From a virus: 64,000 nucleotides of DNA. Below the pieces are notes generated by a model. It was not told the DNA's origin. It did not search any database and saw only the letters and a list, made by a program, of their open reading frames with translations. Location: positions 11,954 to 75,953 of the IMG/VR virus record IMGVR_UViG_3300044993_000765. One strand, 5' to 3'. Each line of letters starts with the position of its first letter. Position 1 is the first letter of the stretch. Below are positions 37,969-55,610 of the stretch, piece by piece. The position numbers and the translations under genes were made by a program.

Positions 37969-39257
37969 TCACCAGTCAAAACCTCCTGAATTTCCATTTC
38001 TATTTCTGGAAATCAAAGCCTGTGGAGGCTTCGGAAACCTCGCCCCGATATCGTAAATCCGAGCCAGTGCGTCGAGCATGTCGTCGTGCAGCCCGGCCGG
38101 AAAAGTCAGGTATTCGGCATTGACGAACCGTTCCACCACATCGACCGGTGAGCCGTCCGACAACGTGCGCGGCAGCGCCTTCGGCAGCCACCAGCGCCCA
38201 TTCTCGAAATCCGGCTGTAACCGCTCTATCCGGTCCTCTTTCGCCATCTGCCCACCCAACGGCTCCAGGTCGAAGCGGTAGTTTTCCGCCTCCTGCACGC
38301 CATGGATGTGTTCGATGTCGCCGTCCTTGCCATATTTCTCGTATCCAGTCTTCAGCGGCTTCCACTTGCGGTGCAGGTAAATCAGCAGCGCAGCGCGCTC
38401 CTTGAGCGACAATCGATCGCGCACGGCTTCAAGCAGATAGTATCGGCCATCAGTGTTCAAGCCGATGACCACAAACGCGCTGTAGTCGCTGCGCTTGCCC
38501 TTGGAGCCGGCAGGGTCAACCAGCAGGTAGCGGTTCATCGGCCGCGCGATCTGGATCGGCAAGCTGTCGTAGTGGCGCAACCACTCTCGTTTGAAGAATC
38601 CACCCGTGCCAGCGACCGGCCGCTGCTGATACAACGCCTCCCAGTCCCTGCTCCCGCTGACGATTCGCTTTCGCTCCAGAGCTGCCTCGCTGAACCGTTC
38701 GGGACACAGAGCTTTCCCGGGCATACGACCCAACTGGTCGTTCTCCAGTGCCAGAGCCGGCAGCAGAATGACCTCCCAATCCTCCTGCGGGTGTTCGCGT
38801 AGCAACCAGCCGGCCAGGTCGTCCTCATGCCAACGGGTGTGCATGACGATCAGGATCGAGTCCTCCGCTAGTCTCGGATAGACGACGGAGGTGAACCAGG
38901 TCTTGGTCGACTCCCGCACCCGCTCTGACTCGGCTTCCTCGCGCGACTTGAACGGATCGTCGATGATGAAGACCTTGGACGGGAAACCGGTCGCGCCGCC
39001 GCGAATCGTCGTGCCGAGGTACAGACCGCCTTCGGTCGTCTTGAAGTAGGTCTTGGCGGTCGAGCTACCGTCCAGCCGCGACTCCGGAAACACCGCCGCA
39101 TGGACCGGCGACATCAGCGCATCTCGCACTGCTTGCCCGTTTTCCTCGGCGAGGTCGATCCCGTAGCTTGCGGCGATGATCGGCCAGTCCGGATGCTTCC
39201 CAAAAATCCACGGCGGCAACAGCTTCGACACGAGCCGGCTTTTGCCGTGCTGGGGCG
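37969..39257 (-). CDS. terL: Terminase large subunit, 3' part (interrupted gene)
   Basis: PQHGKS Walker A, IIDDP Walker B, MHTRWHEDDL, VDPA...SDYSA, HDDMLDAL. Confidence 0.93.
39251..39257. repeat. Satellite att core (left copy)
   Basis: tggggcg, identical to 55429..55435. Confidence 0.88.
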
Positions 39258-39321
39258 TCAACCACTATCTGCAAAAAAGTGATTGATTTTTTTGGTTTTT
39301 CTTATGAATCAATGGGATGCA

Positions 39322-39341
39322 TGCCCCCATTGTTGCCCCCA
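39322..39341. promoter_or_regulatory. Integrase arm-type sites (tgccccca x2, 12-bp period)
   Basis: The same pair with the same spacing occurs at 55289..55308. Confidence 0.75.
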
Positions 39342-39477
39342 GAGCCGGCCTTCTGCACCGGAATGTGGTGGGACTGCGCGGGACAAACGACGATCACGAC
39401 ACCCTGGCGGTTCATTACACACACGCCTTGCACGACAGCGCACGCGACTCAGCAACGCAACCCGCCAGCGGGTGCGC

Positions 39478-40053
39478 CTACTTCGGTTCGGCCGCGTCTC
39501 CCTGCTCGTAAAGCGACACCAAACCCTGCTCGCCGACGGCGTGCGTGCTGCACGGGAAATAGACCAGTTCGTCGATCACGTTCAACCACGCGCCGTTGAA
39601 TCGCTCGATCAGGTTGCGCTGCCAAGCATGCGGCATCGCCCAGATGTGTTTGCAGCGGGCCACGGCAACGTCATAGCTCGCATGCGGCTCGAAGTACACC
39701 AGGTACAGCGGCGTCACCTGTTCTGGTCCATAGCGGCGCTTCTGCATGCGATTGATCCAGTTCATCTCTTCATAGGCCCACACCAGACTGCTCGACACCG
39801 CCTTGCTTGCGACGTTGACGTAGTACGGCCGGGCGCGCGCAAATGCCAACATGTACACGACGGCCTCCGGTTCCGGCAGAGGTCGGCCGCGCAGGCTGTC
39901 CAGCGTCCAGGTGGTCGCCTCCGGCGCTGGGACTTCGGATCGCGCGGTCTCCGCCTCCAGCGTCGCCGGGGTGAGGCTTGCGAGATCAGCCGCCACCGCC
40001 GCCTCCACCACCTCCGCCGCCGCCACCCCCATCGCCGCCGCCATCGCCATCAC
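39478..40053 (-). CDS. Degenerate GIY-YIG (YhbQ-like) protein; start uncertain
   Basis: VYMLA...YYV and LVYFE.H....A.AR.K.I....AW...LIE..N..W. Confidence 0.5.
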   Translation of the reverse strand: MMAMAAAMGVAAAEVVEAAVAADLASLTPATLEAETARSEVPAPEATTWTLDSLRGRPLPEPEAVVYMLAFARARPYYVNVASKAVSSSLVWAYEEMNWINRMQKRRYGPEQVTPLYLVYFEPHASYDVAVARCKHIWAMPHAWQRNLIERFNGAWLNVIDELVYFPCSTHAVGEQGLVSLYEQGDAAEPK

Positions 40054-43000
40054 CCTGTGGTCCCGATGATGGTGTCAGCGTGCGCGGGCCGATCCGCATC
40101 ACCGGACCCTCGGTTTCCTGTCGCTCCTTTTTCGCCAGTTCTTCGGCCTGTATCTGCGCCAACACCTGTTCTCGCATCACCGTTGCAGCCTGCGCCATCG
40201 CTGAGGACTGCTCCAGCGAAGTGTGCAGCGCCTGCTGCGTATTGATCCCCGCACGGTGGCAGTAGTCGGTCGTCGGATCGCCCTGCACCGGAATCAGCGT
40301 GGCAGGCAAGCCGGGACCGGGCGCGCTTTGGGTGCTTACGCACAGACTGTCGATACGGGTGGCGAACTTGTCTTCGGCCAGGAACTGCGCCACCACGCCG
40401 GCCGCTAAGCGGCTTTTCTCCTCCTGCGTCAGCAGGCCCGCCGGCACCACGTCGCCGCGTTCGATCAGGCCCAACGCCTGCGTGTACATCGCATGCGCCG
40501 GGTGGCCGGGGTGCGTCATCAGCGTGGGCGCGGGCGACGCTTGTTCCGATGCTTGGGTGGGTTGCCGATCTTCTTCGCGTTCGTCGCGGGTCGCGGCGCG
40601 ATGGGCGAGCGCCGGATCGAGTGCCGTCGCGGTTTGCGGTGCGGTTTGCGCCTCGGCGCGCGCGGTATATTCGGGTTCGCGCTCGGGTGTGTCGTCGGTG
40701 CTGCGTGCCGTCGATGCGGACAGGCCCACGGTACGCGCTGCGGCGGCGGGCTCCGGTGTGTCCTGTGCTGGCGTCGAACGGTTTGGGCCGCTTGGTTCGC
40801 CACGTTCCCGCTCGCGTTGCGCCGCAAGCGCACGATCCACCGCGTCGCGCGTGTCCTGATCGGCGATGCCAGTCGCGGGGATGCCGTGCATCGTCTGGAA
40901 CTGGCGCACGGCGTGTTCGGTTTCCGGGCCGTACTGGCCGGTTTGTGGGATCTGCGTGCCGTCCGGTCCACGATAGCCTTGCCGGTCGAGGCGGTATTGC
41001 AACAGTTCGACATCATCGCTGCGGTCGCCCAGGCGTAGAACATCGGGATCGGATGTCGTGGGCGCGGGCGTCGTCGTTTCGATCTTCGCGGCGGTGCGCT
41101 CAGACTCTGGCAACGATTCGCGTTCTGGCGCGGCGGTCACGGTGGACGGTGGCGAGGGTTCGCGCGGTGTTTCGACTGCCGGCGACGCGGCGTGTCGATC
41201 GCTCGTCGCCGTTCGCACATCCGGTTCGGTGGTCGTCGTGTTCGGCTGCTGTGCGGATTCGCGTTCGCTCACAGGCGCGGTGGTGGGCGGGCTGCTGTCG
41301 TTCGCCTGCACACCGTTGGGCGGCGTTTGATCGCGCGCCGCGCGCTCAGCGTCGCGATGCTGTTCGATGTCCGCGCGTTCGCGCTCAATACGCGCGGCGT
41401 CATCGTCGCGTGCGTCGCGCGCCATCGTTGCGACGGCTGTCGCCGCCAGTGGAACATTCTGCGCCGTGGGCGTGTCCTGCACACGTTCGCGCTGCGGTGT
41501 GTTCTCCGGCGTTTCCTCGGTGGCGCGTGCTGCGTCGCCTGCCGGCGTCATCACGCGCGCCGATGCGCCCACGGCTGCCGCATCGACAGCTTGCTGCGCG
41601 TCTTCTTTCGACAACCCCTGTCGATTCGCCTCGCGCTGCGCCTGTTCGCGTGCGTCGCGTTCTTCGGGCGTCGCCTGCGTGATCGTGCGTTCCGGCACCG
41701 GCTGCGCATACGCGACGGCGTACTGCGTCGGCTGATCGGCGATGCCGGTCGCAGGCAAGTCGTGGGCCTGCTGAAATTTCGCGACCGCGTACACGGTGTC
41801 TTGGTCGTAGTGTCCATTTTGCGGAAGCGGCTGGCCGTCGATCCCACGATAGCCCTGTTGATCGAGACGGTATTGCAGCAACGCGACCTGATCGTTGCGG
41901 TCGCCGGGGTACGCGGTATCGGGATCGCGCGGGCCTGCCATCATCGCTTGGATCGCGGCGGTTTGCGCGGGGTTCTGTGTCGTGGGCACATCCTGCGCGC
42001 GCTCGCGTTGTGGTGCGTTCTCCAACGCCTGTTCGGGCGTGCGGATTGCATCCTCTGCTGGCGTGGTTCCGCGCGCCGGTGCGCCGATGGTGGCCGCATG
42101 GACGGCTTGCTGCGTGTCGTCGTTCGATAGTCCTTGCCGGTTCGCTTCGCGTTGCGCCTGCTCCGCAGCGTCGCGTTGCTCCGGCGTGGCGAACGCGATG
42201 GTCTGCTCGGGTGCTGCATGCGCGGGCGATGGCGCTTGCTGTTCATGCGATTTCAGTTCGCGCAACTCGGCCGCGATGTCGTTCGGCGTCGTGGTCGCCG
42301 CTGTCTCCACGTTCTTGCCGTCAGCGCCGCCAAAACGCGTATGACGAATCTCAATCTCGGCGATGGACTTCCCCGCCGTGTTCGGCTCAAGTTCAAGCGC
42401 ATTGACGCCCGCTATCAGCCCATGCTCGGCGCGCGTGCGTTGCACGGCAGCGTAGGCCGCCTCGAATTCCTCTGGTCGAACGTCGGGATTGCGGCCCGCA
42501 TCGACGTACAGGCGGCGCAATGCGGCGCGGTCGGCCTGTTCTGGCGTGGGCGGCGTCCAGTCGGGAATGCGCGCGAGTTCCTTCTCGTATCCCGGCATCG
42601 CCGAAAGCAAGCGTTCGCGCGTCAAGTCCAGTTCCAGCGCGCGCTGAGGGGGTGCCGGTTCGCCGCCGCGCATCCACGTCCCTTGCGCATCCCGTTCGTA
42701 AACACGTTCGTCGGAGGCTTGCAGTCGGTCGGTCGTCATGGCGCTGGTCACGGCCGCCGGCACCTCGCCGGCTTCGCCGTAGCCGTAGGCTTTGTGTCCC
42801 AACTGGTAGCGCATCGCGATGGCCGCCGGCCCCGCTTGAAGGTTCTCGTCTATCGTCTGGCGTGCTTGGGCATTCAACTGCGCGGTGCGCTCTGGACTGG
42901 CGTACTCCGGCTCCGCGTTCCACTCGGGGGCGCCTTCGCGATCCACGGTATCGGCCACTTGGCGCGACCAGCGTTCGCTTTCCACGTTGTAGGTCCAACG

Positions 43001-44308
43001 TCCTGTCTGCACATGCGCGGGGTCGCTCTCCGACACCGGCTGCACGAACGGGTTGCGCGGCGTCGGCACCTTGCCCAGCGCCTGTTCGGCCGCCTCCACC
43101 CCGGCCTGATAACTCAACTGCTGCGCTTTCTCGGGGGGCGCGCGATACCGCGCCGGTTGAAAGTCGCTGATCCCATCGTCCACTCGGTCGGCGCGCAAAT
43201 CTTCGCGAATCCAGTCCTTGCCGTTGTAGCCCCACGTCACGCCCGGTTCGTCGCGATCTTTCTGCGAATAAATCTTCTCGTTTTGCCAATGCGTGACGGC
43301 GCGATCAGCGGCTTCGGCCATGAGAAACGCATCGGCCGCCACCAACACCAGCGGACCCGTGCCCGTGGCGCCCACGGCGGCCGCCGTGAGCGTGCCGCCG
43401 CCCCAGCCCGCGACATTCCGTGCGCCGAAACGTGCCCACTGCTCGTTCGCGGCGGTCGCGTTGTCCTGCGCCCACAGTTCGCTGGTGCGTACCGTCGTTT
43501 GGTACGCATCGAGTCCCGTTGCCGCAATACCGCCCATGCGCAGGGCTTGGTTGGCGGAAAGATCGCCGACCAGAAATTCAGGCGAGATAAAACCGCGCTG
43601 GCCGCGTGGCACGCGGAACGCGCGCTCTGCCGCTTCGGCCCCTTGCTCGGTCAGCGTCAAGCGACCATTCTCCTGCGCGCTGTCCACCGCCTCCGACAAG
43701 CTCTGCAAGCCTCTCGCGGCATTGCCCTTGATGGTTTTCTTTCCGGGCTGGTCGATGGTCTCCAGGCTGGCGGTCAGATGCGATTCGGATTTCAGCACCG
43801 CCGGCCAACGCGCTTCGGGGCCGGTGAGTTTGCCGACCGCCTCGATCTCAAGCGCATGCGTGCGCTGGTATTCGGGGAGATTGCGAAAGAACGCCGCGTT
43901 CCTCGCGTTCGCGGCTTCGGGTGTCATGCCTTCCGGCGTGTTGGTCAGCAGATCGCCGTTGACCATTGCGAATTTGAGGGTGTCGCAGAGGTGGTTTACT
44001 CTTGCCGCTACCCGCTCGGCGGCGGCTCGATTTCCTGCGAGTGTGGCTTGACCATCCGGCGTTTCGGCCAGCTTTTCAAGTGCGTCTGTCAGTTTGTCAG
44101 AATACTCGCCCAGCGGTCCACCATTGTGAGGCGTGACGTCGAGTTTCAATGCTAATTGCCTGTCGGCAGGCAAGTTCAGCAGATTGCGGTCGCCATGTAA
44201 GTCAAACAGACCTCCTCGCGTGAGGTCTTGCAATAGCTTGCTTCTTTTATACGCATCTTGCTCAATGACGTGATGCCCTTGAAATACAGGCTGGTCGTGC
44301 TTAGCCAT
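39986..44308 (-). CDS. X-T4SS effector: N-terminal AHH (HNH-fold) nuclease, two peptidoglycan-binding domains, C-terminal XVIPCD-like domain
   Basis: FQGHHVI...NLLNLP...PHNGG; two V.LLQYRL..QGY...AV..FQ..H..P.TG.AD repeats; HPAHAMY...PVQGDP...TSLEQSS. Confidence 0.82.
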   Translation of the reverse strand: MAKHDQPVFQGHHVIEQDAYKRSKLLQDLTRGGLFDLHGDRNLLNLPADRQLALKLDVTPHNGGPLGEYSDKLTDALEKLAETPDGQATLAGNRAAAERVAARVNHLCDTLKFAMVNGDLLTNTPEGMTPEAANARNAAFFRNLPEYQRTHALEIEAVGKLTGPEARWPAVLKSESHLTASLETIDQPGKKTIKGNAARGLQSLSEAVDSAQENGRLTLTEQGAEAAERAFRVPRGQRGFISPEFLVGDLSANQALRMGGIAATGLDAYQTTVRTSELWAQDNATAANEQWARFGARNVAGWGGGTLTAAAVGATGTGPLVLVAADAFLMAEAADRAVTHWQNEKIYSQKDRDEPGVTWGYNGKDWIREDLRADRVDDGISDFQPARYRAPPEKAQQLSYQAGVEAAEQALGKVPTPRNPFVQPVSESDPAHVQTGRWTYNVESERWSRQVADTVDREGAPEWNAEPEYASPERTAQLNAQARQTIDENLQAGPAAIAMRYQLGHKAYGYGEAGEVPAAVTSAMTTDRLQASDERVYERDAQGTWMRGGEPAPPQRALELDLTRERLLSAMPGYEKELARIPDWTPPTPEQADRAALRRLYVDAGRNPDVRPEEFEAAYAAVQRTRAEHGLIAGVNALELEPNTAGKSIAEIEIRHTRFGGADGKNVETAATTTPNDIAAELRELKSHEQQAPSPAHAAPEQTIAFATPEQRDAAEQAQREANRQGLSNDDTQQAVHAATIGAPARGTTPAEDAIRTPEQALENAPQRERAQDVPTTQNPAQTAAIQAMMAGPRDPDTAYPGDRNDQVALLQYRLDQQGYRGIDGQPLPQNGHYDQDTVYAVAKFQQAHDLPATGIADQPTQYAVAYAQPVPERTITQATPEERDAREQAQREANRQGLSKEDAQQAVDAAAVGASARVMTPAGDAARATEETPENTPQRERVQDTPTAQNVPLAATAVATMARDARDDDAARIERERADIEQHRDAERAARDQTPPNGVQANDSSPPTTAPVSERESAQQPNTTTTEPDVRTATSDRHAASPAVETPREPSPPSTVTAAPERESLPESERTAAKIETTTPAPTTSDPDVLRLGDRSDDVELLQYRLDRQGYRGPDGTQIPQTGQYGPETEHAVRQFQTMHGIPATGIADQDTRDAVDRALAAQRERERGEPSGPNRSTPAQDTPEPAAAARTVGLSASTARSTDDTPEREPEYTARAEAQTAPQTATALDPALAHRAATRDEREEDRQPTQASEQASPAPTLMTHPGHPAHAMYTQALGLIERGDVVPAGLLTQEEKSRLAAGVVAQFLAEDKFATRIDSLCVSTQSAPGPGLPATLIPVQGDPTTDYCHRAGINTQQALHTSLEQSSAMAQAATVMREQVLAQIQAEELAKKERQETEGPVMRIGPRTLTPSSGPQGDGDGGGDGGGGGGGGGGGGGG
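41441..42190 (-). repeat. Internal ~78-aa duplication in the effector (about 41441..41674 and 41957..42190)
   Basis: ATPE.RDA.EQAQREANRQGLS..D.QQAV...PQRER.QD.PT.QN occurs twice. Confidence 0.85.
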
Positions 44309-44350
44309 GATGAAATTCTCCGATGAATAAGCAAAGGGCTATCGCAGCAA

Positions 44351-45004
44351 TCAGAAATCTGCTGCGTCTCTCCAGTGCAAGCCATCCGAGCTGGGCTTGA
44401 CCCCGATTCCTGCTTTACGGATTGCGTCGTACATGATCCGATCACAGATAACGGTGAGCGGTTTCTCTGCCATCCGAAACACATGGGCCGAACCAACGAC
44501 ATCTTTCTTAAATGCAAGCTTCGCGCCCCTCGTAAAATCTATAATTTCTACGTCTTTCCCTGTGCGAAAATCGTGTTCGATATCAACAAAAAACTCAGAG
44601 TTTTCCCTGTCCAGAGCAGATAGTTTTCGCACCACATCGCACAGGTAGAACTGTGGCCCTTGCGATCCATCAGGCAACACGTAGTCGCATGCGGCGAACT
44701 CAAACGCCTCCGGGTCAACGGATTCAAAGACGTTCTTCAATCGCTCTGACACGAGCCAGTAACCACCAAAATCCCCATCCAGATCATTCGGCGGCCTGTT
44801 CTTTCCTGGCCCAGTGCCATGAACTAGACGTGGCGTTTCCGGCAGGGGCGGAATGCCGCCTTCAGGTGGCCGAATGATGCGAGAGGGCGGCGTCAACAAT
44901 GCTTCTTCGTTTGCGAGAACGACATTGGATAGCGGCGAACTGCTGCGCGAATCTGGACGCAGCAAGTAGAACTGTCCTTTCTCGGACTTTTGCTTGGTGG
45001 TCAT
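44351..45004 (-). CDS. DUF1629/Imm11-family immunity protein
   Basis: WLVSERLKNVFESVDPEAFEF...YLCDVVRKLSALD; directly upstream of the AHH toxin. Confidence 0.78.
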   Translation of the reverse strand: MTTKQKSEKGQFYLLRPDSRSSSPLSNVVLANEEALLTPPSRIIRPPEGGIPPLPETPRLVHGTGPGKNRPPNDLDGDFGGYWLVSERLKNVFESVDPEAFEFAACDYVLPDGSQGPQFYLCDVVRKLSALDRENSEFFVDIEHDFRTGKDVEIIDFTRGAKLAFKKDVVGSAHVFRMAEKPLTVICDRIMYDAIRKAGIGVKPSSDGLHWRDAADF

Positions 45005-45519
45005 CGTGTCCTCACTGCTCATCAATGTGTCGGTGGTCATGCAGGTCAATCGTATCGATATTTACGTGAAGGCGTCAGCATCAGCAACATGCACGCGACG
45101 CTGGCACGGCTTCGCCATTGCGCATCCACGGCCCTTGCGTATCACGTTCGTAGTCGCGGTGGTCGGATGCGCGCAGTCGGTTGGTCGTGATGGCGGATCG
45201 CCTTTACGGCGCACGGCAACTGCTGGCGGATCGTGCAGCCGGTCGTTTCGATTCGGTCGCAGCCGCTGGTGCGGGGCGATGTCGTTGTTCTCCGTCATGG
45301 AGCATTCCTGTCCTGAGTCGTCCAAATTATGACAGCGGGTCCAGCCGGTGGCACACGGCCGGATTGGCGGGCGCGGTCGTCACAGCAGGTACAGCAACAG
45401 GGCGACCAGCCATTTGCAGACCCCGATCACAAGATCGTAGCGCCGCATTCTGCGTTGGTCTGCGCAATGCGCACCGTGCCTGCGCCGGGGGCGGCCAGGT
45501 GCCGACGTTGCGCGCGCAA

Positions 45520-45942
45520 TCAGGCCGCGTCCTCGATCACATACCCATGCGTATCCGCGATGCGACGTGAGTTCGCGTGGGGATCGGTACGTGCGATTTC
45601 CTCGCGTCGGATCACCAATCCAGACGGTGCGATCACTGCAATGCGGATCTGTCGCTGCCCGCCGCGCACCTTGCGCTTTGCGCTGGTCGCTTCTCCGACA
45701 ACGATCACCGCATCGCCGAGTTGCAAGGACTCGCCCGTGAGCAACCAGAGCAGGTAGAACGCGCTGCCGTTGGAAGTCGTCACCGGCCGCAGCGCGTCGC
45801 CTTCATCGGCGACCAGGACATCCAGTGGCGCGGCGACGGCGACAAGCACGCACGACCCGCGACGATCGCGCACGGTCAACCTCACGTCGTCACCGATGCG
45901 CAGGCTTTCGCCCGTCCTTCGATTCAGTACCAACCGGCCCAT
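45520..45942 (-). CDS. Single-chain tandem CsrA/RsmA-like protein
   Basis: LVLNRRTGESLRIGDDV...QIRIAVIAPSGLVIRREEI; homolog of 24053..24499. Confidence 0.8.
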   Translation of the reverse strand: MGRLVLNRRTGESLRIGDDVRLTVRDRRGSCVLVAVAAPLDVLVADEGDALRPVTTSNGSAFYLLWLLTGESLQLGDAVIVVGEATSAKRKVRGGQRQIRIAVIAPSGLVIRREEIARTDPHANSRRIADTHGYVIEDAA

Positions 45943-45943
45943 G

Positions 45944-46315
45944 TCATCCCTTCCTTTGGTAGCGCGACAGGCGCGCGCCCTGGGTACGCGCGATTTGCAT
46001 CGCTTCAGGTGCCTCTATCTCGAACTGCGCATCGCGCATCGCACGCGCGGTGCCTGCGTGTTCTCGCGCATCGCTGATGCGTACGCGCACCGGGCCAATC
46101 TCGAACGCATCACCGTCGAACAGGGCGAGGACGTGCGCGCGCCAACCGAATCCGCACGGCGCACTGGCGCGGAAGCCGTCCACGTCGCCCAGTGCGTTGT
46201 CCTGATGGGCCTCGATGTAGACGTACCAGGTGCCATCGACCCACCCGGTCAGATTCAAGCGGATGTGGTCGCCAAAACTGACGATTTCGCCGATGGCGAC
46301 GTGCAGCACGCGCAT
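45944..46315 (-). CDS. Highly degenerate tandem CsrA-like protein
   Basis: VLHVAIGEIVSFGDHIRL...FEIGPVRV...FEIEAP. Confidence 0.6.
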   Translation of the reverse strand: MRVLHVAIGEIVSFGDHIRLNLTGWVDGTWYVYIEAHQDNALGDVDGFRASAPCGFGWRAHVLALFDGDAFEIGPVRVRISDAREHAGTARAMRDAQFEIEAPEAMQIARTQGARLSRYQRKG

Positions 46316-46761
46316 CAGCGATGCCCCGAGAAAGTACCGGCCTCGCCCAGCGTCCCGCCCAAGGGGGCGCGCGGCAACGCGGAGGAGGCCGGCAGGGAAA
46401 CCGGGGCGAACCTGTCCCGGAGCGATGAGCCGATAACCCGATCCGCCACGGCGGACGCGATGCCAAGGTGAACCGCGTCATCGCAGCCGCGTGCATGTGG
46501 CACCACGTCGCCGGGCAACCAGACCTGCAAGGCCAGATGCCCCAGTCGGAAGCGGCGCACGGCCAGCAGTGAGAAGACATAGCCCCAGGTGCCGTCCGCG
46601 CGGCGTAGCGGCTCCAGGCGCGCGCCGTCCAGCCACAGGCAGATGCCGGCTGCCGCGCTCACAGACAGCGCCACACGGGGACCGATGCGAGCCTGGACGA
46701 CGATCCGGCTTCCTTCACCAACCCGGACGGGTTGGCCAACACGGCACGTCATCACCTCCAC
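46315..46761 (-). CDS. Degenerate tandem CsrA-like protein
   Basis: AGGAGG SD before GTG; VMTC.VG..V.VG and Y.FSL..VRRFR...WLPGDVV..A..C.D.VH.GIA shared with 24493..24903. Confidence 0.7.
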   Translation of the reverse strand: MEVMTCRVGQPVRVGEGSRIVVQARIGPRVALSVSAAAGICLWLDGARLEPLRRADGTWGYVFSLLAVRRFRLGHLALQVWLPGDVVPHARGCDDAVHLGIASAVADRVIGSSLRDRFAPVSLPASSALPRAPLGGTLGEAGTFSGHR

Positions 46762-46894
46762 GGGACACCTCCTGTGTGGCCGGACGAGGAGGCCGGCGGC
46801 AGGCGCATCGTTACCGGCGTTAACGCTGGTGTCAATAGGATGAATTTCTGATGTAGGCTTACACCATCCCCGTTCAGCCCGGAACCTGCCCCCC

Positions 46895-47551: not shown

Positions 47552-47654
47552 CGGGCGGGATCGGGCCTAGAATGGCATGACGCCAGCGCGGCGATCGGCA
47601 CACCCTGTCGGATCAGACAGGGGCGGCGACAACACAGGGAACAGGGAGCGGAAT

Positions 47655-49202
47655 GTGGGCAAGACCTGGGGCAGGTATCTCGCGAAGGGCATCGTCATCG
47701 CCGTGGTGTACGGCGTCGCCTATCTGGCGCTGCGCTACATCTCGTTCAACCAGTGGTTCCTGCCGGCGGGGTTGCGCGCGGCATGCCTGCTGTTCCTGCC
47801 GTATCGGTATTGGCCCTTCCTCTTTCTTGGGGAAGCGGGACTCACGCTGTCCAAGAAGATCGAGATGATCGATGTCTATGGTGCAGCATGGGTCTACCTT
47901 AGTCCGTTGCTCATGCCGCCGATGGTCTCGGCGCTTCCATTTCTGGTCAGAAGGAAGCTGGGAACCGGTGATCGGTTGATGCGATGGCTGCCATTGCCCG
48001 CAGCCCTGATGGCCATTTGGTCTTCGACTTGCAATTTCGCGGTGAATCGTCTTCTTGACGGTCCAAATCATCCAGAAGACTTGAAGGCATTCTTGGGGTT
48101 TGTCATTGGCGACTACCTCGGGATTCTCACCGCGCTGATGATCGTTTTTTTGTTTCGATCCCTGCGAAGAGAGCGCCATGTCTCATTTGGCTTCATCCGT
48201 GACTCCGTGATTTCCGCTGCACTGATCGGATTCGCCTACGTCTGGATCGAGCACTTTCTAGCCGAGGACGATTTTCTCCGTCTTGCGTTGCTCATGACGA
48301 TGACGATTCCCATCGTACTACTGACCTTTTTCCACGGTTGGAGAGGAGCCGCTGTTGGCTCATTACTGGCGAGTCTTGGAGTCGCCCAGGCGATGACCTA
48401 TACCGGAATCCAGAACTCAAACAATGACTTGGTTCTCTACGCTCAGATGGGCCTTGTAGTAACGTCTGCCATGTTGCTTCTGCTGGGCGGGCAGATCACT
48501 CGACACTATGAAAGCGCCAAAGCGTCAGGTTTCGCGCAACAGGAAGCACTGAAGCTCGCACGCATGCAGTTGCTGTCCAATGAGCCTGCGGTGCGTGACC
48601 AACTCATCATCATGGCGAGCATGCAGGTGCAGATGGACGACGCCCGCGACCTGCTCGCCAAGGATCTGCACGCCAACGGCAAGGCACGCGAGGCGATGGA
48701 GTTGAACCGCCGCGGCGTCGAGCATCGGCAACTGTTCGAGGTGCAGTCGCTGGTGGTCTATCCCATCGGCATCGAGCGCGACGGCTTGTTCGGCGTGCTC
48801 GACACCGCCGCCTTCCGCGAGTCGCGCGCCAGCGGCGTGGCGGTCGAGTTCGCCTTCGGCCGCATCGACCCGCGCACGCTGTCGGAAGACTTGCAGGTGT
48901 CGGCCTACCGTTGCCTGTGCCACGCCATCGATCACCTGTCGGACTGGGAGCCGGCCCGCTACCGCCTGCGCCTGCGGGTCTGGCATGGTCGCGCCCGGCG
49001 TGGACTCTACCTGTCGGTCGCCATCGACACCGAGTACGCTCGCCACGTCACGCCGCACGGCGAGAGCGCCCTGCTGCTGCTGGAGGCACGGGTCAAGGTC
49101 CACGGCGGGCTGCTGCGCCGTACGCCGCACGGCATTCGCCTGCTTCTGTCGGAGCCGGCCGGGGAGCCTGCCGCCTTCCAGCCGCTGCCCCACACGGAGT
49201 AA
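47655..49202 (+). CDS. MASE1-domain membrane sensor with degenerate kinase-like region
   Basis: SFNQWFLPAGLR...YWPFL, FHGWRGA; homolog of 25825..27381. Confidence 0.82.
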   Translation: MGKTWGRYLAKGIVIAVVYGVAYLALRYISFNQWFLPAGLRAACLLFLPYRYWPFLFLGEAGLTLSKKIEMIDVYGAAWVYLSPLLMPPMVSALPFLVRRKLGTGDRLMRWLPLPAALMAIWSSTCNFAVNRLLDGPNHPEDLKAFLGFVIGDYLGILTALMIVFLFRSLRRERHVSFGFIRDSVISAALIGFAYVWIEHFLAEDDFLRLALLMTMTIPIVLLTFFHGWRGAAVGSLLASLGVAQAMTYTGIQNSNNDLVLYAQMGLVVTSAMLLLLGGQITRHYESAKASGFAQQEALKLARMQLLSNEPAVRDQLIIMASMQVQMDDARDLLAKDLHANGKAREAMELNRRGVEHRQLFEVQSLVVYPIGIERDGLFGVLDTAAFRESRASGVAVEFAFGRIDPRTLSEDLQVSAYRCLCHAIDHLSDWEPARYRLRLRVWHGRARRGLYLSVAIDTEYARHVTPHGESALLLLEARVKVHGGLLRRTPHGIRLLLSEPAGEPAAFQPLPHTE

Positions 49203-49238
49203 GCCCGGACGCCCTCGCGGGCTTCCGGGCCGCCGTCC

Positions 49239-49691
49239 TCACTCCGCCGCGCCCAGGGTGCGGATGAGCCAACGGGTCACGCTGCCGTCCTGGTAGCGCA
49301 CCACTTCCACGTCGGTGCCGCGATACAGCACGCTGGGCACGCCCGCCGGCACGGCATCGCCGGGCACGGCCACACGGTCGGCGTCGGTGCCGATCGGCAT
49401 GATCCAGGCGGTGCCGCCGATGCGCCCGGCTGCCGCGCGCACGGTGCCGGCGGAATCGTTGATCTGCACGTAGCGCACGCCGTCGCGCTGGAACTCGTAG
49501 ATCTGCCAGGCGGGATCGGCGGCAAGATCGACGGCGGCCGGGAAGGACTCGCCGAGTCCACTTGAGGCCGCTTGGCTCCAGTGCCCATCGGCGGGGCAAC
49601 CGCATTTCGCCCAGGCGCTCGGCGTGAAGAATAGTGCGCAGGCCAGCAGGGCGAGCGGCGCGCAGGCGGAACGGGAAAGATACATCGACAT
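49239..49691 (-). CDS. Small secreted protein, KCGCPxDG family
   Basis: Sec signal ending AWA; homolog of 27370..27819. Confidence 0.8.
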   Translation of the reverse strand: MSMYLSRSACAPLALLACALFFTPSAWAKCGCPADGHWSQAASSGLGESFPAAVDLAADPAWQIYEFQRDGVRYVQINDSAGTVRAAAGRIGGTAWIMPIGTDADRVAVPGDAVPAGVPSVLYRGTDVEVVRYQDGSVTRWLIRTLGAAE

Positions 49692-50189
49692 GATGAAACT
49701 CCTTTGGTCTTGGTCCGTGTTGAGGTGCTAACGGCGCGACGGTTCCCCCGGCCTGCCGTTAACGATGGATGGCCCGCTTGGCGTCTTCGCAGCGGGCATC
49801 TTGACGGTACCACCCCTATTCGCGTCCCGGCCCGTGCCGGCCGCACTGCGCCGCAGGCGGCATCGCCGGGGTTCGCGAGCAGCATCCGGATCGCACGCTG
49901 GCGCGCTTCGTGCGCCGTCCTGAGCGGTGGCTCCCCCCGTTCCTGCGGCCTTCTGGCCGTGTGGTGCGGGTGGTGCGGCGGCCGATGGATGCCATGCCCA
50001 CGCTGCGGAACTGCAGGGGACGACGTGGCCGCTGGGGGTGTGCGCCGCGATGCGCGTTCGCCGGAAAGGTTCTGGCCCATTCTGGCCGTTGGCTTCAGGT
50101 GGGCGTGCCGCCCCCGCGCGCGCGCGCGGAACGATTGGTTTTCCGCCCCTTCTGGGCGCGATCCTGACGCCCTCGCGCGCGCGGAACGG

Positions 50190-50717
50190 TCAGGTTGCCG
50201 CTGATCGCGGGCGTATGCGGGTGCGCTTGGGACGCGGTGCATGCGGTTTCGGGATCGCACGCCCGGCCTTGCGATGCCAGCACCACGGGCAGGCAGTAAC
50301 GGTCGCAGGCGCGTTCGGCCACAACAGGACCGGTCCGCAGCCGGCACATTCGACGACGCGCGTCCAGCCTGCGGGCACGCGCCCCGCCGCCATGTGCTGC
50401 GACCTCGCCAGCGCGCGCAGGAGCGCCGACAGCGCCTGCCGCGACAGTCCTTTGCAGGCGCGCAGATCGCGCATCGACAGCGCCGCCACGGTCGCTCCCG
50501 CCAAGCCTTCGTCGATCAGCAGATCGAACAGGGTCCGCAGCGTGTCGCCCTCGGCGGACGCCAGCAGCGCGACCAGTTCGGGCTTGTGGTCAGCGATACG
50601 CTGCTGGAACGATGACGGGATCGAGCCGCGTGTGGGTTCCAGGCGCAGTCGGTCACCGTGGGCGTACACCCGAATGCCGGCATCGTGCAGTTCGGCCATC
50701 GTGCGAACCGGCGTCAT
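50190..50717 (-). CDS. Satellite hypothetical protein with C-terminal CxxC...CxxC zinc ribbon
   Basis: GIRVYAHGDRLRL...HKPELVALL; CAGCG, CPWC. Confidence 0.6.
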   Translation of the reverse strand: MTPVRTMAELHDAGIRVYAHGDRLRLEPTRGSIPSSFQQRIADHKPELVALLASAEGDTLRTLFDLLIDEGLAGATVAALSMRDLRACKGLSRQALSALLRALARSQHMAAGRVPAGWTRVVECAGCGPVLLWPNAPATVTACPWCWHRKAGRAIPKPHAPRPKRTRIRPRSAAT

Positions 50718-50758
50718 AGGCCGCTCGCCTGTCGTCGGAACTGTTCGCCGCGACCGCC

Positions 50759-50983
50759 CGAAGGTAGCGAAGGTTGCGAAGATGGCGGCTGCACGGAGTT
50801 CGTATCTTCGGTGGTTTCGGCCCCCGAACCGCCACCTTCGGGGTGTTGCGACCCGCTCGGGGTCTGTTTCGTCATCGCCGTCATAACTCGACGACCGCTC
50901 CGGCGACCTCGCCAAGATGGCGGTCGGATGCCGAAGATTGCGAACAGGAATTTTCGCCATCTTCGCGACCTTCGCGATCTTCG
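50759..50983. repeat. Iteron-like 9-bp repeats, putative satellite replication origin
   Basis: cgaaggtag-cgaaggttg-cgaagatgg and inverted ccatcttcg-cgaccttcg-cgatcttcg at the 3' end of the helicase gene. Confidence 0.65.
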
Positions 50984-52722
50984 ACGGGCCGCCCACTGCC
51001 TTCGGCCAGTCGCCACAGCCAGCCGCCGAGCATGCCCCGCTTGACCGCGACCGCGCCGATCTTCCGCTTGGCCCGGTGCATGGCGTCCCTGGAGTAGCCC
51101 GCCGCGCTGGCTTCGGCGAACACGTCCTTTGCCGGACGCTCTCCCGCACGCAACAGATCGCGCAGGAAGCCGGCCGCGTCTTGACCCGCCCCATCGTCGC
51201 GGGATTCGGCCTCTGCCAACACCGCGCGCGCGGTACCCTCGATGACCTCGCCCCAGGCGACATAGGACGCGATCACGCCGGGATGCTCCGGCAGCGGGGC
51301 TTGTTGCAGGTCGTAGGCGAAGCCGCCACCATCCGGGCCGAGGTTGGATTTCGCGCGCAGCAGCACGTTGCGGGCGGGACGATCCTCGTCCGCCTCCTGT
51401 CGCGCCGCCACCAGGACAATGCGCGCCAGCGCGCCGAACGCCAGCGAGCCGGTGATGCGTTCCAGCGGATCACGCCCACTGGTGCCCTTGGAGAAGTGAG
51501 TGATGCCCACCACCGCGCAGCCGTGTTCGTCGGCCATATCCACCAGCGGCTGCAAACCGCGCCGGACCTCGGCGTTCTTGTGCGAGTCGCCGGCCACCGC
51601 CGACGACAGCGGATCGACCACGATCAGGCGCACGTCGGGGATGGCCTGCAAGCCATCGCGCAACAAGTCCATGTCGCGCGCGGGATCGAACGGATATGTC
51701 TCGCCCCGGTCGATCACGCGCTCGACGACGTGAATCCGGTCCATGTCCGCGCCGGCCGCGTGCAGGCGGGGACTGAGCGTGTCCTTGTGGCCATCCTCGC
51801 CCGACCAGATCACCACCGAACCGACGCGCGCGCGGCTGCCGTCCGGCCAACGGCCGCCACGGGTGACGATCGCCGCCAGCCCCGCCGCAAGCGTGGTTTT
51901 CCCCGTGCCGGGTACACCGCCGACCAGGTGCAACTTGCCAGCTGCCAGCCAGCCCGGCCACAGCCAGTCCACCGGCACCGGCTCCAGGTCGCTGCCGCGT
52001 CGCAGGATCACGCGCGGGCCGTCGTCGCGTCGTGGCGACGCCGATGTGACAGGCGTGAGCGAATTGCGCGTGGACGTGCCCTCGCGTGGTGTCGGCGGCA
52101 TGATGCGTGCGAGTGCCCACACGTCGTTGGCGTTGGCGTCGGGATGCTGCGTCAGCCAATCGACGCAATCGCCCTTCGCCGGGAGGTTCAGCGCCGCCAC
52201 GTCGATCCATTCCACCGATGCGGCGATGCCGCGCAGCTTGGCGGTGACGGTTTCGACATAGCGCCGGCCCGCCGCGTCGTTGTCGCCCCAGCAGAGGACG
52301 TGGCGCCCGCGCAGCGGCGACCAGTCGGCGGCATCGGCACTATCCGCGCTACCGCTGGTGACGGCGATCAGGTCGATCCGCGACAGCGCATCCACCTTGT
52401 TCTCGCCCTCCACCACCATCACCCAATCGCTGTCCTCCAGGGCTTGCAGATCTGCAAGCCCATACAGCAGTTTCCCGCTGGGAGGCGAGGAAGGTTCGCC
52501 GATCACGAACGCATGGCCGTTCCAGTGCATCGGCCGAATCCATTTCTCGCCGTTCGGATGCTTCGCGCGCAGTCGCCAGAACTGCACTTGGCCGCCAGCA
52601 TCGTAGTAATGGTGGAGCGCGGCCGGCACGAAGCCATCGGCGATAGCGGACGCGGCCAGTCGGCGCGCGGCCTGTGCGGGTGTTTCGTGGGCTGTGGCCG
52701 GGGGATCAGGTGCGCCGGCCAT
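50881..52722 (-). CDS. Toprim primase plus AAA_25/RepA-type helicase
   Basis: VVEGENKVDAL, WGDNDAAG, GVPGTGKT, IVVDP, GITHFSK. Confidence 0.9.
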   Translation of the reverse strand: MAGAPDPPATAHETPAQAARRLAASAIADGFVPAALHHYYDAGGQVQFWRLRAKHPNGEKWIRPMHWNGHAFVIGEPSSPPSGKLLYGLADLQALEDSDWVMVVEGENKVDALSRIDLIAVTSGSADSADAADWSPLRGRHVLCWGDNDAAGRRYVETVTAKLRGIAASVEWIDVAALNLPAKGDCVDWLTQHPDANANDVWALARIMPPTPREGTSTRNSLTPVTSASPRRDDGPRVILRRGSDLEPVPVDWLWPGWLAAGKLHLVGGVPGTGKTTLAAGLAAIVTRGGRWPDGSRARVGSVVIWSGEDGHKDTLSPRLHAAGADMDRIHVVERVIDRGETYPFDPARDMDLLRDGLQAIPDVRLIVVDPLSSAVAGDSHKNAEVRRGLQPLVDMADEHGCAVVGITHFSKGTSGRDPLERITGSLAFGALARIVLVAARQEADEDRPARNVLLRAKSNLGPDGGGFAYDLQQAPLPEHPGVIASYVAWGEVIEGTARAVLAEAESRDDGAGQDAAGFLRDLLRAGERPAKDVFAEASAAGYSRDAMHRAKRKIGAVAVKRGMLGGWLWRLAEGSGRPVEDREGREDGENSCSQSSASDRHLGEVAGAVVEL

Positions 52723-53122
52723 ACGCGCCTCCTACCAGGTCGCGCACGGCCTCAATGAACGGCCGGTCGATCAGACGCATGTGGAACGACACCAGATCGC
52801 CGTGGCCGCAGCCCGTGAAACAGCGCCAGTGCCCGCGCTCGCCGTCCAGACGCACCGACAGCGACGCATTGCGATCCTCGTGGAAGGGGCAACGCCCCTG
52901 CGCCCAGCCGTTGCCGTGGCGCGCGCCGAGCTTCGCCACGCGGGCGCGGTAGTAGGTCTCGGGGTCGGGGAGGCGGGTGCGCCAGTTCCGAGGGAGGCGC
53001 GGCGCTTGCACCGCACGGCGCGCGACGGTAGCGTGACGCCTGCGGTCGCTCTCTCCAAGCGCCTCCGTGTCCTCTGAACCCCCGCGCCCGCCAGCGCGGG
53101 GGTTCTTCATTGTGGCGGTCAT
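52706..53122 (-). CDS. Stand-alone CHC2 zinc-finger (primase ZBD) protein
   Basis: CPFHEDRNASL...WRCFTGCGHGD. Confidence 0.85.
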   Translation of the reverse strand: MTATMKNPRAGGRGGSEDTEALGESDRRRHATVARRAVQAPRLPRNWRTRLPDPETYYRARVAKLGARHGNGWAQGRCPFHEDRNASLSVRLDGERGHWRCFTGCGHGDLVSFHMRLIDRPFIEAVRDLVGGAYGRRT

Positions 53123-53349
53123 GCGCGCGCGCCTTGGTCGCGGACGGCGATGCGCTGGGTAATCCATGCGTCGATTTCGGCCGTGGACCACGCGCTGGTG
53201 CGCGAGCCGAGTTTCACGGGCGCGGGGAAAACGCCCAGGGCGATGCGGCGGTAAATCTCCGAACCCGACAGGCCGGTGCGGGCTTTGACGGATGGCAGGC
53301 GTTCGAGGGTGAGCGCGCCCGTTGCGGGCGTGGTGGGTGTGCGGGTCAT
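53119..53349 (-). CDS. alpA: AlpA-family regulator/excisionase
   Basis: RLPSVKARTGLSGSEIYRRI..G.FPAPVKLG...AW...EIDAWI. Confidence 0.9.
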   Translation of the reverse strand: MTRTPTTPATGALTLERLPSVKARTGLSGSEIYRRIALGVFPAPVKLGSRTSAWSTAEIDAWITQRIAVRDQGARA

Positions 53350-53550
53350 GGTCGGTCTCTGCAATGGGCCTGCGCCGGTCGGAACAGGTGGGGAACGTGT
53401 CGGGGAAACACCGCTGTCCGGCGCACAGGCACGCGGACGGCCGAACGCGCGACACGGACGCGCCTCGGATCAGGAAAAAACGGGGCAGTCGGCCAGCAGG
53501 CCAGAAGGCGCGTCAGGCGCGTCAGGCGCGCGGAGCATCGGGCAGACAAC

Positions 53551-53578
53551 AAAACGGGCCGCCTTTCGGCCGCCCGTT
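53551..53578 (-). terminator. Putative intrinsic terminator
   Basis: Imperfect aacgggccgcc-tttc-ggccgcccgtt hairpin with a T-run on the minus strand. Confidence 0.5.
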
Positions 53579-53655
53579 AGATCGAACACCGCCTCAGTCG
53601 CGCCACCGAACAAGCAACCGCGCCACGCTCAAAACGTGGCGCGAATGGCATGCGG

Positions 53656-53940
53656 TCAGCAGGGCATCACGCACCACCCGCAGCCGGTGGCCTCACGCAA
53701 GGCGCGCGCCGTCTCCAATGCGAACTCGCACAGGTAGGCCGTGCTGCCCTCGGTGCCGGTGTCGATCGCGCTGGCAAGAACGCGACGCACCGCATCCTCC
53801 AGGTCGGCCGCCTCACGGCGGGCGGTCGTCACCTCCACCCCGGCCAGCACCGCCAGCAGCGGGCGGCCCTCGTTCGGAATCTCCCGAAATTCGGTGCCGG
53901 TGGTGGTCGTGCGGGCCTCTGTTACGCTGGTTGTAGCCAT
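53656..53940 (-). CDS. DUF3077-like small protein
   Basis: LLAVLAGV....A...A..L pattern; GAGGA SD. Confidence 0.5.
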   Translation of the reverse strand: MATTSVTEARTTTTGTEFREIPNEGRPLLAVLAGVEVTTARREAADLEDAVRRVLASAIDTGTEGSTAYLCEFALETARALREATGCGWCVMPC

Positions 53941-54009
53941 GATCGTTCCTCTCTTGAACGGTGGTGGTCAGGGCGGCCGGGGTGTGACAGCACCCCGGTC
54001 ACCCGCTTG

Positions 54010-55257
54010 TTACCGGCTTGCGCCGGATGCGATGCGCCGGAACGGCACCACTTTCTGGCCCGTGTCCGCGCGTAATTCGTCGAGATAGTCCGCCCACGCC
54101 TGCATCATCTTCCGGCGTTCGGCGAGGTGGGCCGTGCGGTTGTAGGCGCGACCGTTGGGATCGCGTACCGCGTGCGCCAACTGGTGTTCGATGTAATCGG
54201 GGCGGAAGCCCAGCGACTCATCCAGCACCGTGCGCGCCATCGCCCGGAAGCCGTGCATCGTCATCACGTCCTTGTCGTAGCCCATCTGCCGCAGCGCCAC
54301 CACCAGCGTATTCGGGCCAATCGGGCGGTCGCGCCTCGGCCCGCGCATGGTCTGGAATACATGCGGACAACGCGCGGTCAGTGGGTACAGTTCGCGCAGG
54401 ATCGCCAACGCCTGCTGCGACAACGGCACCAGATGGGCATGCCGCATCTTCATCCGCTCGGCCGGGATCGTCCACTCTGCCTTGTCCAGATCAAATTCCG
54501 ACCACTGCGCAAAGCGCAGCTCGCCGGGGCGCACGAACACCAGCGGCGCCAGCCGCAGCGCGCAGCGCACCACGAAATGCCCCTTGTATACGTCGATGGA
54601 CCGCAGCAGTTCCCCAATCGCCTGCGGCTCCATGATTGCAGCAAAGTGCTTGTTCTTCGGCGACAGCGGCAGCGCGCCCACCAAGTCCGCCGCCGGGTTG
54701 CGCTCCGCGCGCGCGGTGACGATGGCGTAACGGAAAATCGCGTTGCAGTTCTGGAGCGTGCGCCGCGCGGTTTCAATCGCGCCGCGATCCACCATGCGAT
54801 TGAGCGTCACCAGCAACTCGCGGGCCGTGATCGCCGACACCGGACGCCGGCCCAGCCATGGGAACAATTCGCGCTCCAGGCGCAGCAACGTGCGCTCCGA
54901 GTGCGTCTGTACCCAATTGGGCGAGAACTTCGCATGCCACTCCCGCCCCACCACCTCGAAGCTGTTGGCGTACTTGTCGGTCTCCGCCGCGCGTCGCGCC
55001 TGCCGATGCAGACTCGGGTCGATGCCGGACGCCAGCAGCCGCCGCGCTTCGTCGCGCAGCGCGCGGGCAGCGGCGAGCGTCACATCGGGATACGTCCCCA
55101 GCGACAGCCGCTTTTCCTTGCCGAGAAAACGGTACTTCCATCGCCACCACTTCCCGCCTGCGGGCGAGAGTTCCAGATACATCCCGCCGCCATCGTGCAG
55201 GCGCTGGGTTTTCGTCATGGGCTTGGCGTTGCGGATCGCGGTGTCGGTCAGCGGCAT
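54010..55257 (-). CDS. P4-type tyrosine integrase of the satellite
   Basis: MPLTDTAIRNAKP...DGGGMYL arm-binding domain; VRPGE, HGFR, LAH, RAYNR catalytic motifs. Confidence 0.95.
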   Translation of the reverse strand: MPLTDTAIRNAKPMTKTQRLHDGGGMYLELSPAGGKWWRWKYRFLGKEKRLSLGTYPDVTLAAARALRDEARRLLASGIDPSLHRQARRAAETDKYANSFEVVGREWHAKFSPNWVQTHSERTLLRLERELFPWLGRRPVSAITARELLVTLNRMVDRGAIETARRTLQNCNAIFRYAIVTARAERNPAADLVGALPLSPKNKHFAAIMEPQAIGELLRSIDVYKGHFVVRCALRLAPLVFVRPGELRFAQWSEFDLDKAEWTIPAERMKMRHAHLVPLSQQALAILRELYPLTARCPHVFQTMRGPRRDRPIGPNTLVVALRQMGYDKDVMTMHGFRAMARTVLDESLGFRPDYIEHQLAHAVRDPNGRAYNRTAHLAERRKMMQAWADYLDELRADTGQKVVPFRRIASGASR

Positions 55258-55288
55258 TGGGGGCAACTCTCCTGCGAATCGGTGCGCT

Positions 55289-55308
55289 TGCCCCCAGACT
55301 TGCCCCCA
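55289..55308. promoter_or_regulatory. Integrase arm-type sites (tgccccca x2)
   Basis: Matches the pair at 39322..39341. Confidence 0.75.
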
Positions 55309-55428
55309 CACACACCCGGATGACCTGCGACGGTCGGAGAGGATGCGGGACGAGGGAGGGCAGGTTTTCTCGGGTCTTTTCGGGGGTCCGGGTCTTCCCG
55401 GGACGACCTGAGTATTCAATGTGATTGA

Positions 55429-55435
55429 TGGGGCG
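55429..55435. repeat. Satellite att core (right copy)
   Basis: tggggcg. Confidence 0.88.
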
Positions 55436-55610
55436 GCGCGAAGAACATCAGCCGTCCGCGTCCCCGGTGCACCGCAGCCTCCAGCCGTCGCGCGGCGTAG
55501 CGATGCCAGCGATACGGAACGTACTTGGGGTCGCCGAGGATCGAGTAGGCCAGCAGGTTGTCCCTCCCTTCGGACAAGAACGCCTGCACCGCCGGATCAG
55601 GCCGGTGCAT
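55429..55610 (-). CDS. terL: Terminase large subunit, 5' part (first 60 codons, ...RLMFFAPP)
   Basis: Overlaps the terS end; joins QHGKS in frame across the att core. Confidence 0.88.

Follow-up and report, generated by a model that had tools for sequence, protein, structure and literature searches.

The large terminase gene of a prophage in IMG/VR virus record IMGVR_UViG_3300044993_000765 is cut in two, within the codons of its Walker A motif, by an integrative element of about 16 kb. The DNA analyzed here, termed the window, is a stretch of 64,000 nucleotides corresponding to positions 11,954 to 75,953 of that record, and all coordinates refer to it. Our preferred interpretation, held with moderate confidence, is that of an integrative island of satellite type, embedded in its helper phage and dedicated to the terL gene of this phage family.

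Precise interruption of terL

On the minus strand, terL is divided into a 5′ piece ending ..RLMFFAPP and a 3′ piece beginning QHGKS, so that the P-loop and the strand preceding it lie on different pieces. The heptamer CGCCCCA is present twice, once at each break, at 55429-55435 (attL core, minus strand, within the P-P-Q codons of the Walker A motif) and at 39251-39257 (attR core, minus strand). The inserted island between these cores occupies 39258-55428 (minus strand) and measures 16,171 bp, or 16,178 bp when one core copy is counted. The N-terminal fragment of terL (55436-55610, minus strand) comprises 58 codons and ends ..RLMFFA-P. Its present open reading frame (ORF; 55416-55610, minus strand) runs on into ..PPHQSH*, entering foreign DNA for four codons past ..RLMFFAPP before it stops; the 64-amino-acid product ends ..RLMFFAPPHQSH*, its last residues and stop codon being island DNA. 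The C-terminal fragment (37969-39250, minus strand) extends from Q-H-G-K-S to the stop, carries the ATPase from the P-loop onward together with the nuclease domain, and is 93% identical in amino acid sequence to its counterpart in the island-free relative L063. Its ORF (37969-39261, minus strand; 430 amino acids, from ..PQHGKS) matches the Pfam family Terminase_6N from profile position 6, and also Terminase_6C. In silico removal of the island yields a terL of 1464 nt encoding 487 amino acids, in frame and with its sole stop at the end. A preliminary description of this DNA had reported a split at these positions by 16,178 bp with a 7-bp core, restoration of APPQHGK in frame to about 487 amino acids on recombination of the cores, and two terL halves that are still open; all of these statements hold.

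Alignment with the island-free IMG/VR relatives L063-L066 shows that they lack the insertion at exactly this point. The uninterrupted site in L063, a phage 96-98% identical, reads TTCTTCGCGC-CGCCCCA-GCACGGCAAG, and the two junctions of the window overlap there by exactly those 7 bp. The DNA flanking the island is 96-100% identical between the window and L063, so the comparison amounts to a single phage, or nearly so, in its island-bearing and island-free states. A 7-bp identity falling exactly at the break of the protein alignment has a chance of 1 in 16,384 for one register and is not a chance feature. The target heptamer lies in the Pro-Pro-Gln codons and is found exactly in 8 of 14 terL relatives of the APPQHGKS type, most of the others differing from it just at the wobble base. 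The Walker A codons are strongly conserved, and CGCCCCA is a stable target within terL.

The metagenomic source of the record raises the question of whether an assembly chimera joined island and phage, which we regard as extremely improbable. A Logan assembly of a hot-spring/microbial-mat run contains a single contig of 28,054 bp, with an even depth of 106, that spans both junctions and covers 37400-57300 with zero differences; this assembly and the JGI record are independent and have identical junctions. A contig from another run also bridges attR. The 7-bp repeat and the in-frame restoration of terL are signatures of recombination, not of assembly error. The independent coverage of 37400-57300 establishes that the junctions are not an assembly artefact. 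Assembled contigs from four runs of the source habitat, searched over 37400-57300, contain neither excision product (the joint 39257/55429 or the attP junction), but contigs drop rare variants and this result therefore says nothing about excision; the joints listed in the four-run contig comparison have sides of 20-29 nt and are spurious.

Organization of the attachment site

The reconstructed attP reads GTGGTTGA-CGCCCCA-TCAATCAC, with a 7-bp overlap between 8-bp inverted core arms that match at seven of eight positions, and an extra copy of TCAATCAC lies at -32. Doubled, co-oriented TGGGGGCA repeats with a 12-bp period are located on both sides of the attP centre. On the P′ arm they take the form TGGGGGCAAG-TC-TGGGGGCAAG (55289-55307, minus strand; +125/+137), with an inverted copy at +167 (55259-55265) just ahead of the int start. 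On the P arm they take the form TGGGGGCAAC-AA-TGGGGGCATG (39322-39340, minus strand; -86/-74). By its sequence, attP has a standard tyrosine-recombinase build, and both the inverted arms around the overlap and the arm sites inside the two island ends are reconstructed as they had first been described.

No replacement sequence is present in attP, attL and attR having just 7 bp in common. The tmRNA (transfer-messenger RNA) 3′ ends of the nearest integrase relatives are not matched by the attP core. A partial resemblance of attP to a tmRNA T-arm, GGTT.GA..C.CCCCA, was considered and found not convincing. The 64-kb window contains no tRNA or tmRNA gene, such as would adjoin attL in an Islander-type island and receive its 3′ end from it; attL lies in terL. 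To look for a chromosomal primary attB, the attP 23-mer was searched with up to three mismatches in 401 genomes of the host family. Only two matches were returned, both with three mismatches, close to the expectation by chance, and the lack of any look-alike beyond chance counts in favor of terL as a dedicated target.

Integrase phylogeny and a second split allele

The island integrase (54010-55257, minus strand; 415 amino acids, MPLTDTAIRNAK..) is of the P4 type, combining the Pfam domains Arm-DNA-bind_3 (1e-28) and Phage_int_M (5e-33) with the catalytic Phage_integrase domain (1e-9). Its start, 172 bp below the attL core, agrees with those of database proteins P0004 and P0126. Together with P0004 and P0127 (each 97% identical), P0005 (86%) and P0006 (84%), it forms a clade (support 100) whose stem measures 0.52 changes per site. 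This clade is nested among tmRNA-targeting integrases of Lysobacteraceae and Rhodanobacteraceae, the nearest relatives, which are at most 65% identical and sit at tmRNA genes. No relatives above 66% identity were found in IMG/VR, GTDB or JGI contigs, so that none of the relatives scanned could show another terL insertion. This pattern fits a change of specificity; it is not what an ordinary tmRNA integrase that went off target would leave.

The protein P0125, from another assembly, is a second 64-amino-acid N-terminal fragment of terL. It differs from that of the window (P0002) by four amino acids and ends in the same island-derived tail, ..APPHQSH. Among proteins of 35-112 amino acids, only P0125 and the contig-end fragment P0124 resemble the N-terminal fragment. 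No further split terL was found in 80 IMG/VR loci, in eight matches among 400 family genomes, or in the 15 listed members of the terL 90% cluster. The integrase is likewise represented by three alleles at 97% identity, namely that of the window, P0004 and P0127.

Two further loci carry sequences resembling the integrase. A contig of run X1 (record 6; 14,839 bp, depth 108.5) contains an integrase-like stretch, about 90% similar, in short patches of window 54078-55265. Its depth equals that of the prophage contig, and it may represent a paralogous island in the same genome, possibly showing the other target of the lineage. In Vulcaniibacterium gelatinicum, an integrase relative that is 64% identical (L151:9800-10020) has doubled arm repeats and no tmRNA or tRNA gene upstream by ARAGORN; this locus may belong to a tandem array, or its target may have decayed.

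Gene content of the island

Downstream of int, the island encodes an AlpA-family excisionase/regulator (53119-53364, minus strand; Pfam Phage_AlpA 6e-14), a CHC2 zinc-ribbon primase piece (52706-53095, minus strand; Zn_ribbon_DnaG 2e-10) and a 613-amino-acid primase/helicase (50881-52722, minus strand; AAA_25 6e-39, PHROG DNA primase/helicase 1e-32). The int, alpA and primase/helicase genes share the minus strand with terS and terL, and int lies beside the upstream terL fragment.

A three-gene module follows, identified by Pfam and PHROG matches and by comparison with a second copy in the helper prophage. It consists of a helix-turn-helix (HTH)/S24-like CI-type protein (46895-47551, plus strand), a MASE1 membrane protein (47577-49202, plus strand) and a secreted protein of 150 amino acids (49239-49691, minus strand), and as a whole it is paralogous to the helper module. 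The helper copy (25071-27819; CI/S24-like, MASE1 and secreted 149-amino-acid proteins) is 43%, 37% and 63% identical in amino acid sequence to the island copies, respectively. The related phages L311, L312 and L313 also carry the module, as equally diverged alleles. Overall its alleles are 35-65% identical, yet those of the window and the near-twin L063 agree at 89-97%. An HTH/S24-like CI-type protein combined with a MASE1 protein of about 520-540 amino acids and a convergent secreted protein of about 150 amino acids suggests a module with an allele-specific role in immunity or signalling. The island protein was considered as an SOS-cleavable repressor and set aside, with an S24 score of 21.7 bits against a Pfam threshold of 23.3 and with the Ser-Met present but the catalytic Lys not evident by eye.

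The remaining genes resemble cargo. A 1440-amino-acid antibacterial effector of the type IV secretion system (T4SS), of the X-Tfe type (39986-44308, minus strand), has PG_binding_1 matches in two stretches (2e-29), a C-terminal X-Tfes_XVIPCD domain (1e-10) and a weak AHH match below the Pfam threshold. It is preceded by an Imm11 immunity gene (44351-45049, minus strand; Pfam Imm11 7e-62). This order, Imm11 gene and then XVIPCD effector (39986-45049, minus strand), suggests a host with a Xanthomonadales-type bacteria-killing T4SS and an island that spreads such effector-immunity pairs. A CsrA-like gene (45520-45942, minus strand; Pfam CsrA 3e-12, PHROG CsrA-like) is adjoined by a small gene with a CsrA-like N-terminus recognized by eye only (45944-46315, minus strand). 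With a third such N-terminus seen by eye in the C-terminal part of 46315-47067, the run covers 45520-47067 on the minus strand; CsrA-like regulators are unusual cargo for a mobile island. Two ORFs have no family match in Pfam or PHROGs: one of 94 amino acids between int and alpA (53656-53940, minus strand; G+C content at third codon positions, GC3, 0.84) and one of 191 amino acids, the last gene of the island (39478-40053, minus strand; GC3 0.83).

Dedicated target, accident or cargo

The insertion could be a secondary-site accident, in which an element whose normal home is chromosomal, as with its t(m)RNA-targeting relatives, struck a 7-bp look-alike in terL once and killed the prophage, the second split allele then being inherited vertically in a related strain. 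We consider this rather unlikely, though it is the most serious competitor. Several observations speak for it or against a dedicated island. Among the integrase relatives, 72 of 80 in GTDB, and 50 of the 52 in JGI contigs whose int is preceded by more than 400 bases of sequence, have a tRNA or tmRNA gene directly ahead of them; terL is not the neighbour of any of the approximately 220 relatives, all at most 66% identical. The sites attB and attP are alike in the 7-bp overlap only, the attB flanks matching the attP core arms at two of eight positions each (by eye), as at a secondary site. HE-PICIs, the helper-embedded phage-inducible chromosomal islands (PICIs) of enterobacteria, have integrases that make off-target insertions, as does lambda (PMC10111431). 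The remaining close terL relatives are intact, as seen in all IMG/VR and family-genome loci compared and in 13 of the 15 members listed for the 90% cluster. Only two split N-fragment alleles are known; they share one junction and may descend from a single insertion. A derived His2 is common to P0002 and the intact P0251, while P0125 is more like the intact P0252 and P0255, which hints at interleaving of split and intact alleles; this rests on one or two characters and is not leaned on. No terL N-fragment matching an island of the P0005/P0006 type turned up.

An accident nevertheless fits poorly with other features. No on-target copy of the integrase subclade was found in IMG/VR, GTDB or JGI contigs, the attP core does not resemble the tmRNA 3′ ends of the nearest relatives, and attP has no match beyond chance in the 401 family genomes. 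Two diverged split alleles accompanied by three integrase alleles, the long stem branch, and the open state of the integrase and both terL halves also speak against it. A family-specific module held in common with the helper phages would not be expected for a chance visitor. The one-off insertion that the preliminary description had named as the alternative is weakened by P0125, the 97% integrase alleles, the stem length, the missing attP look-alike and the shared module, and retains a minor share of our belief.

A further alternative is that the element is specific for terL but is a cargo island and not a satellite. The prophage would then be a landing pad, or the host would keep a prophage-disarming island together with its toxin-immunity pair and regulators, and transfer would be independent of the phage. 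We judge this improbable. In its favor, and again unfavorable to the satellite reading, no capsid, terminase, packaging, redirection, helper-interference or Bro-type (Bro-N) gene was recognized in the island with Pfam and PHROGs, and the X-Tfe/Imm11, MASE1 and CsrA-like cargo would benefit the cell. On the other side, int, alpA and primase/helicase genes unaccompanied by relaxase or T4SS genes, none of which Pfam or PHROGs recognized, form a satellite-type backbone, the co-orientation with late genes and the adjacency to terS match the published helper-embedded layout, and the module is held in common with the phage family. In the sense of SatelliteFinder, a P4-like satellite is not recovered either: psu, delta, sid and epsilon were not recognized, only int, alpA and primase/helicase. 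The earlier satellite-in-terL proposal is partly supported, in that the anatomy fits an int-alpA-primase element at the P-loop whose precise excision would restore terL. No pac or cos mimic was found by similarity to the helper: island and remaining window are alike only in the three-gene module and one 39-bp match, with nothing like the helper terS region. Because capsid, packaging, redirection and Bro genes and any similarity to the helper terS were not found, satellite status is inferred and unproven.

Helper prophage and host

The late genes of the helper follow one another on the minus strand as terS, terL and a portal-type gene (34531-36648). The small terminase gene terS (55597-56196, minus strand; Pfam Terminase_2 4e-21, PHROG 2e-24), directly upstream of terL, is 99% identical in amino acid sequence to that of L063. 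The helper integrase (61792-62880, minus strand; Pfam Phage_integrase 5e-17, PHROG integrase) marks the right prophage end and abuts the host dus gene (Dus 4e-80, Pfam), both within 61792-64000. In enterobacteria, the dusB-fis locus neighbouring dus is a major PICI site. In a search of 401 genomes, among them five flagged as unpublished (G198, G249, G263, G389 and G085) on which no claim rests, the dus product was 83-88% identical to its counterparts from the family of Vulcaniibacterium, Lysobacter and their relatives, and the host is, on this sequence evidence, a Lysobacteraceae-type bacterium from a hot-spring mat. The closest terL among 400 host-family genomes is 76% identical. No GenBank phage terL exceeds 35% identity to that of the helper, which accordingly belongs to an uncultured phage family known from prophages and metagenome contigs.

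Between about 36,600 and 38,950 (junction +300 to +2630), a mosaic patch is 80-86% identical or unalignable to L063, within the flanks of 96-100%. It spans the 3′ kilobase of terL up to the portal gene, has a G+C content of 0.50-0.61, and 38 of its 46 polarised substitutions are GC to AT. About 300 nt lie between the island junction and the patch, and for that reason the patch probably reflects a recombination event distinct from the island insertion. Purifying selection on the split terL, suggested by 44 synonymous and two non-synonymous changes on the window branch, was rejected as an argument: the patch supplies most of these changes, so the branch test says nothing about the time since insertion. 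The idea that the island alleles are younger than their phages was dropped owing to the same confound and to an N-fragment of just 64 residues.

Comparison with known systems

Islands within terminase genes had been treated as a new idea in the preliminary description, but HE-PICIs at such sites were published in 2023, with induction experiments on 61icd/11capE in which the course of excision was measured (Tommasini, Mageeney and Williams 2023, PMC10111431). That work describes 491 elements at 14 sites, which lie in nine lambda-type late genes and include the large terminase (A:Terminase_1:245/246), all in Enterobacteriaceae and with one integrase clade, the founder being Eco567.11capE of E. 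coli NRG857c (PMC10111431). Their attP has no replacement sequence and carries a doubled tgTGTATTGCa motif 81 bp upstream and 132 bp downstream of the centre (PMC10111431).

The element in the window resembles HE-PICIs in being an int/AlpA/primase island that breaks a prophage late gene and is oriented as that gene is, and the return of the gene is expected only on excision. HE-PICI targets likewise include the large terminase gene. Both also have a short identity block with no attP replacement sequence, and doubled arm repeats with a 12-bp period, here at about -80/+131 compared with -81/+132. This arm geometry is not specific to embedded elements, since repeats doubled in a similar way occur inside attL in the tmRNA-type relatives. 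The arm motifs themselves differ, being TGGGGGCA here and TGTATTGC in HE-PICIs. Further differences are a hot-spring-mat, Lysobacteraceae-type host in place of Enterobacteriaceae; a helper that is not lambdoid, with a Terminase_6-type terL and a Terminase_2 terS; the Walker A codons as the target; and a T4SS toxin-immunity cargo, with no captured capsid or late genes found by Pfam and PHROGs. The four-zone layout of Gram-negative PICIs (integration, Bro, replication, late) is represented by integration and replication only, the Bro and late zones not being found. The nearest relatives of the integrase are Xanthomonadales tmRNA-type enzymes, which makes its membership of the 11capE-related clade of Enterobacteriaceae unlikely. 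By analogy, we class the element as one that would work like an HE-PICI without being a member of that clade.

Islands that target tRNA or tmRNA genes with P4-type integrases form another related group (Islander catalogue; Williams 2002, NAR 30:866). The element shares their integrase architecture and the position of int, about 170 bp inside attL behind doubled GGGGG(C/T)A repeats, and its DNA just inside attL can be aligned with theirs by eye. It differs in that the target gene is broken, not restored, and in an attP core without a tmRNA 3′ end. The integrity of a gene can also be regulated by an integrative element, as with the skin element in sigK and phi10403S in Listeria comK. There, as predicted here, the element holds a gene in two pieces until its precise excision, at a defined moment, rebuilds that gene; the difference is that the gene split here belongs to a prophage, and any regulation would serve the island and not the cell.

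Several features distinguish the present case. These are a non-enteric host for the helper-embedded layout, of which we found no other case in the literature searched, and a Walker A target in a Terminase_6-type terL. They also include an integrase that forms a separate subclade within the tmRNA-targeting group, a three-gene module common to the island and the helper phage family, and P0125, a diverged second allele of the split gene in which the junction is identical.

Proposed mechanism

In the proposed mechanism, the P4-type integrase would carry out recombination between two copies of CGCCCCA, that of attP and that in the Pro-Pro-Gln Walker A codons of terL. Given the ASCE ATPase fold, a terL fragment on its own would neither form an ATPase nor bind ATP, and the prophage would thus be without a terminase while the island is in place. 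The C-terminal fragment was also considered as a stand-alone terminase starting from the TTG at 39261. This candidate was rejected because the strand before the P-loop is in the N-terminal fragment and no promoter-like site was found upstream.

By analogy with HE-PICIs, the composite prophage would excise and replicate on induction, and helper late transcription from terS would read into int and alpA. No terminator-like site is present on the minus strand from terS to the end of int. Int and AlpA, by the same analogy, would then excise the island precisely and rebuild the 487-amino-acid terL on some genome copies, DNA packaging becoming possible only after this excision. The island might replicate passively with the composite as well as through its own primase/helicase, and its packaging in helper capsids is a guess. 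The pac sites of headful phages are usually near terS. Since the island adjoins terS, any copy left unexcised would be part of the first headful. The record of the island-free relative measures 59 kb (94% complete by CheckV) compared with 76 kb for the record of the window, and the composite (about 76 kb versus about 59 kb island-free) is probably too long for one headful.

Evolutionary and biological implications

Helper embedding may have a second origin here, separate from that of the enterobacterial HE-PICI clade. In this scenario, which we advance tentatively, tmRNA-type P4 integrases of Lysobacteraceae would have been retargeted to the P-loop codons of helper terL, its most conserved ones, just downstream of terS, with exchange of the CI-like/MASE1/secreted module between the island and the phage family. 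Helper-embedded satellites have so far been documented for one integrase clade of Enterobacteriaceae, and the case described here would place them in thermophilic Lysobacteraceae.

The interruption also carries a warning for virus catalogues, in that a "provirus" rated complete by CheckV can consist of two elements combined, and decay is not always the reason for a split terL. Such islands can carry interbacterial weapons, here an X-T4SS effector with its immunity gene. If helper embedding did originate a second time here, late-gene targeting would be a recurrent satellite solution across Proteobacteria and not the peculiarity of one clade. An integrase derived from tmRNA-targeting enzymes, paired with a helper of an uncultured family, would show that the in-late-gene strategy, in which helper replication and late transcription are taken in cis while packaging is held hostage, is convergent and widespread.

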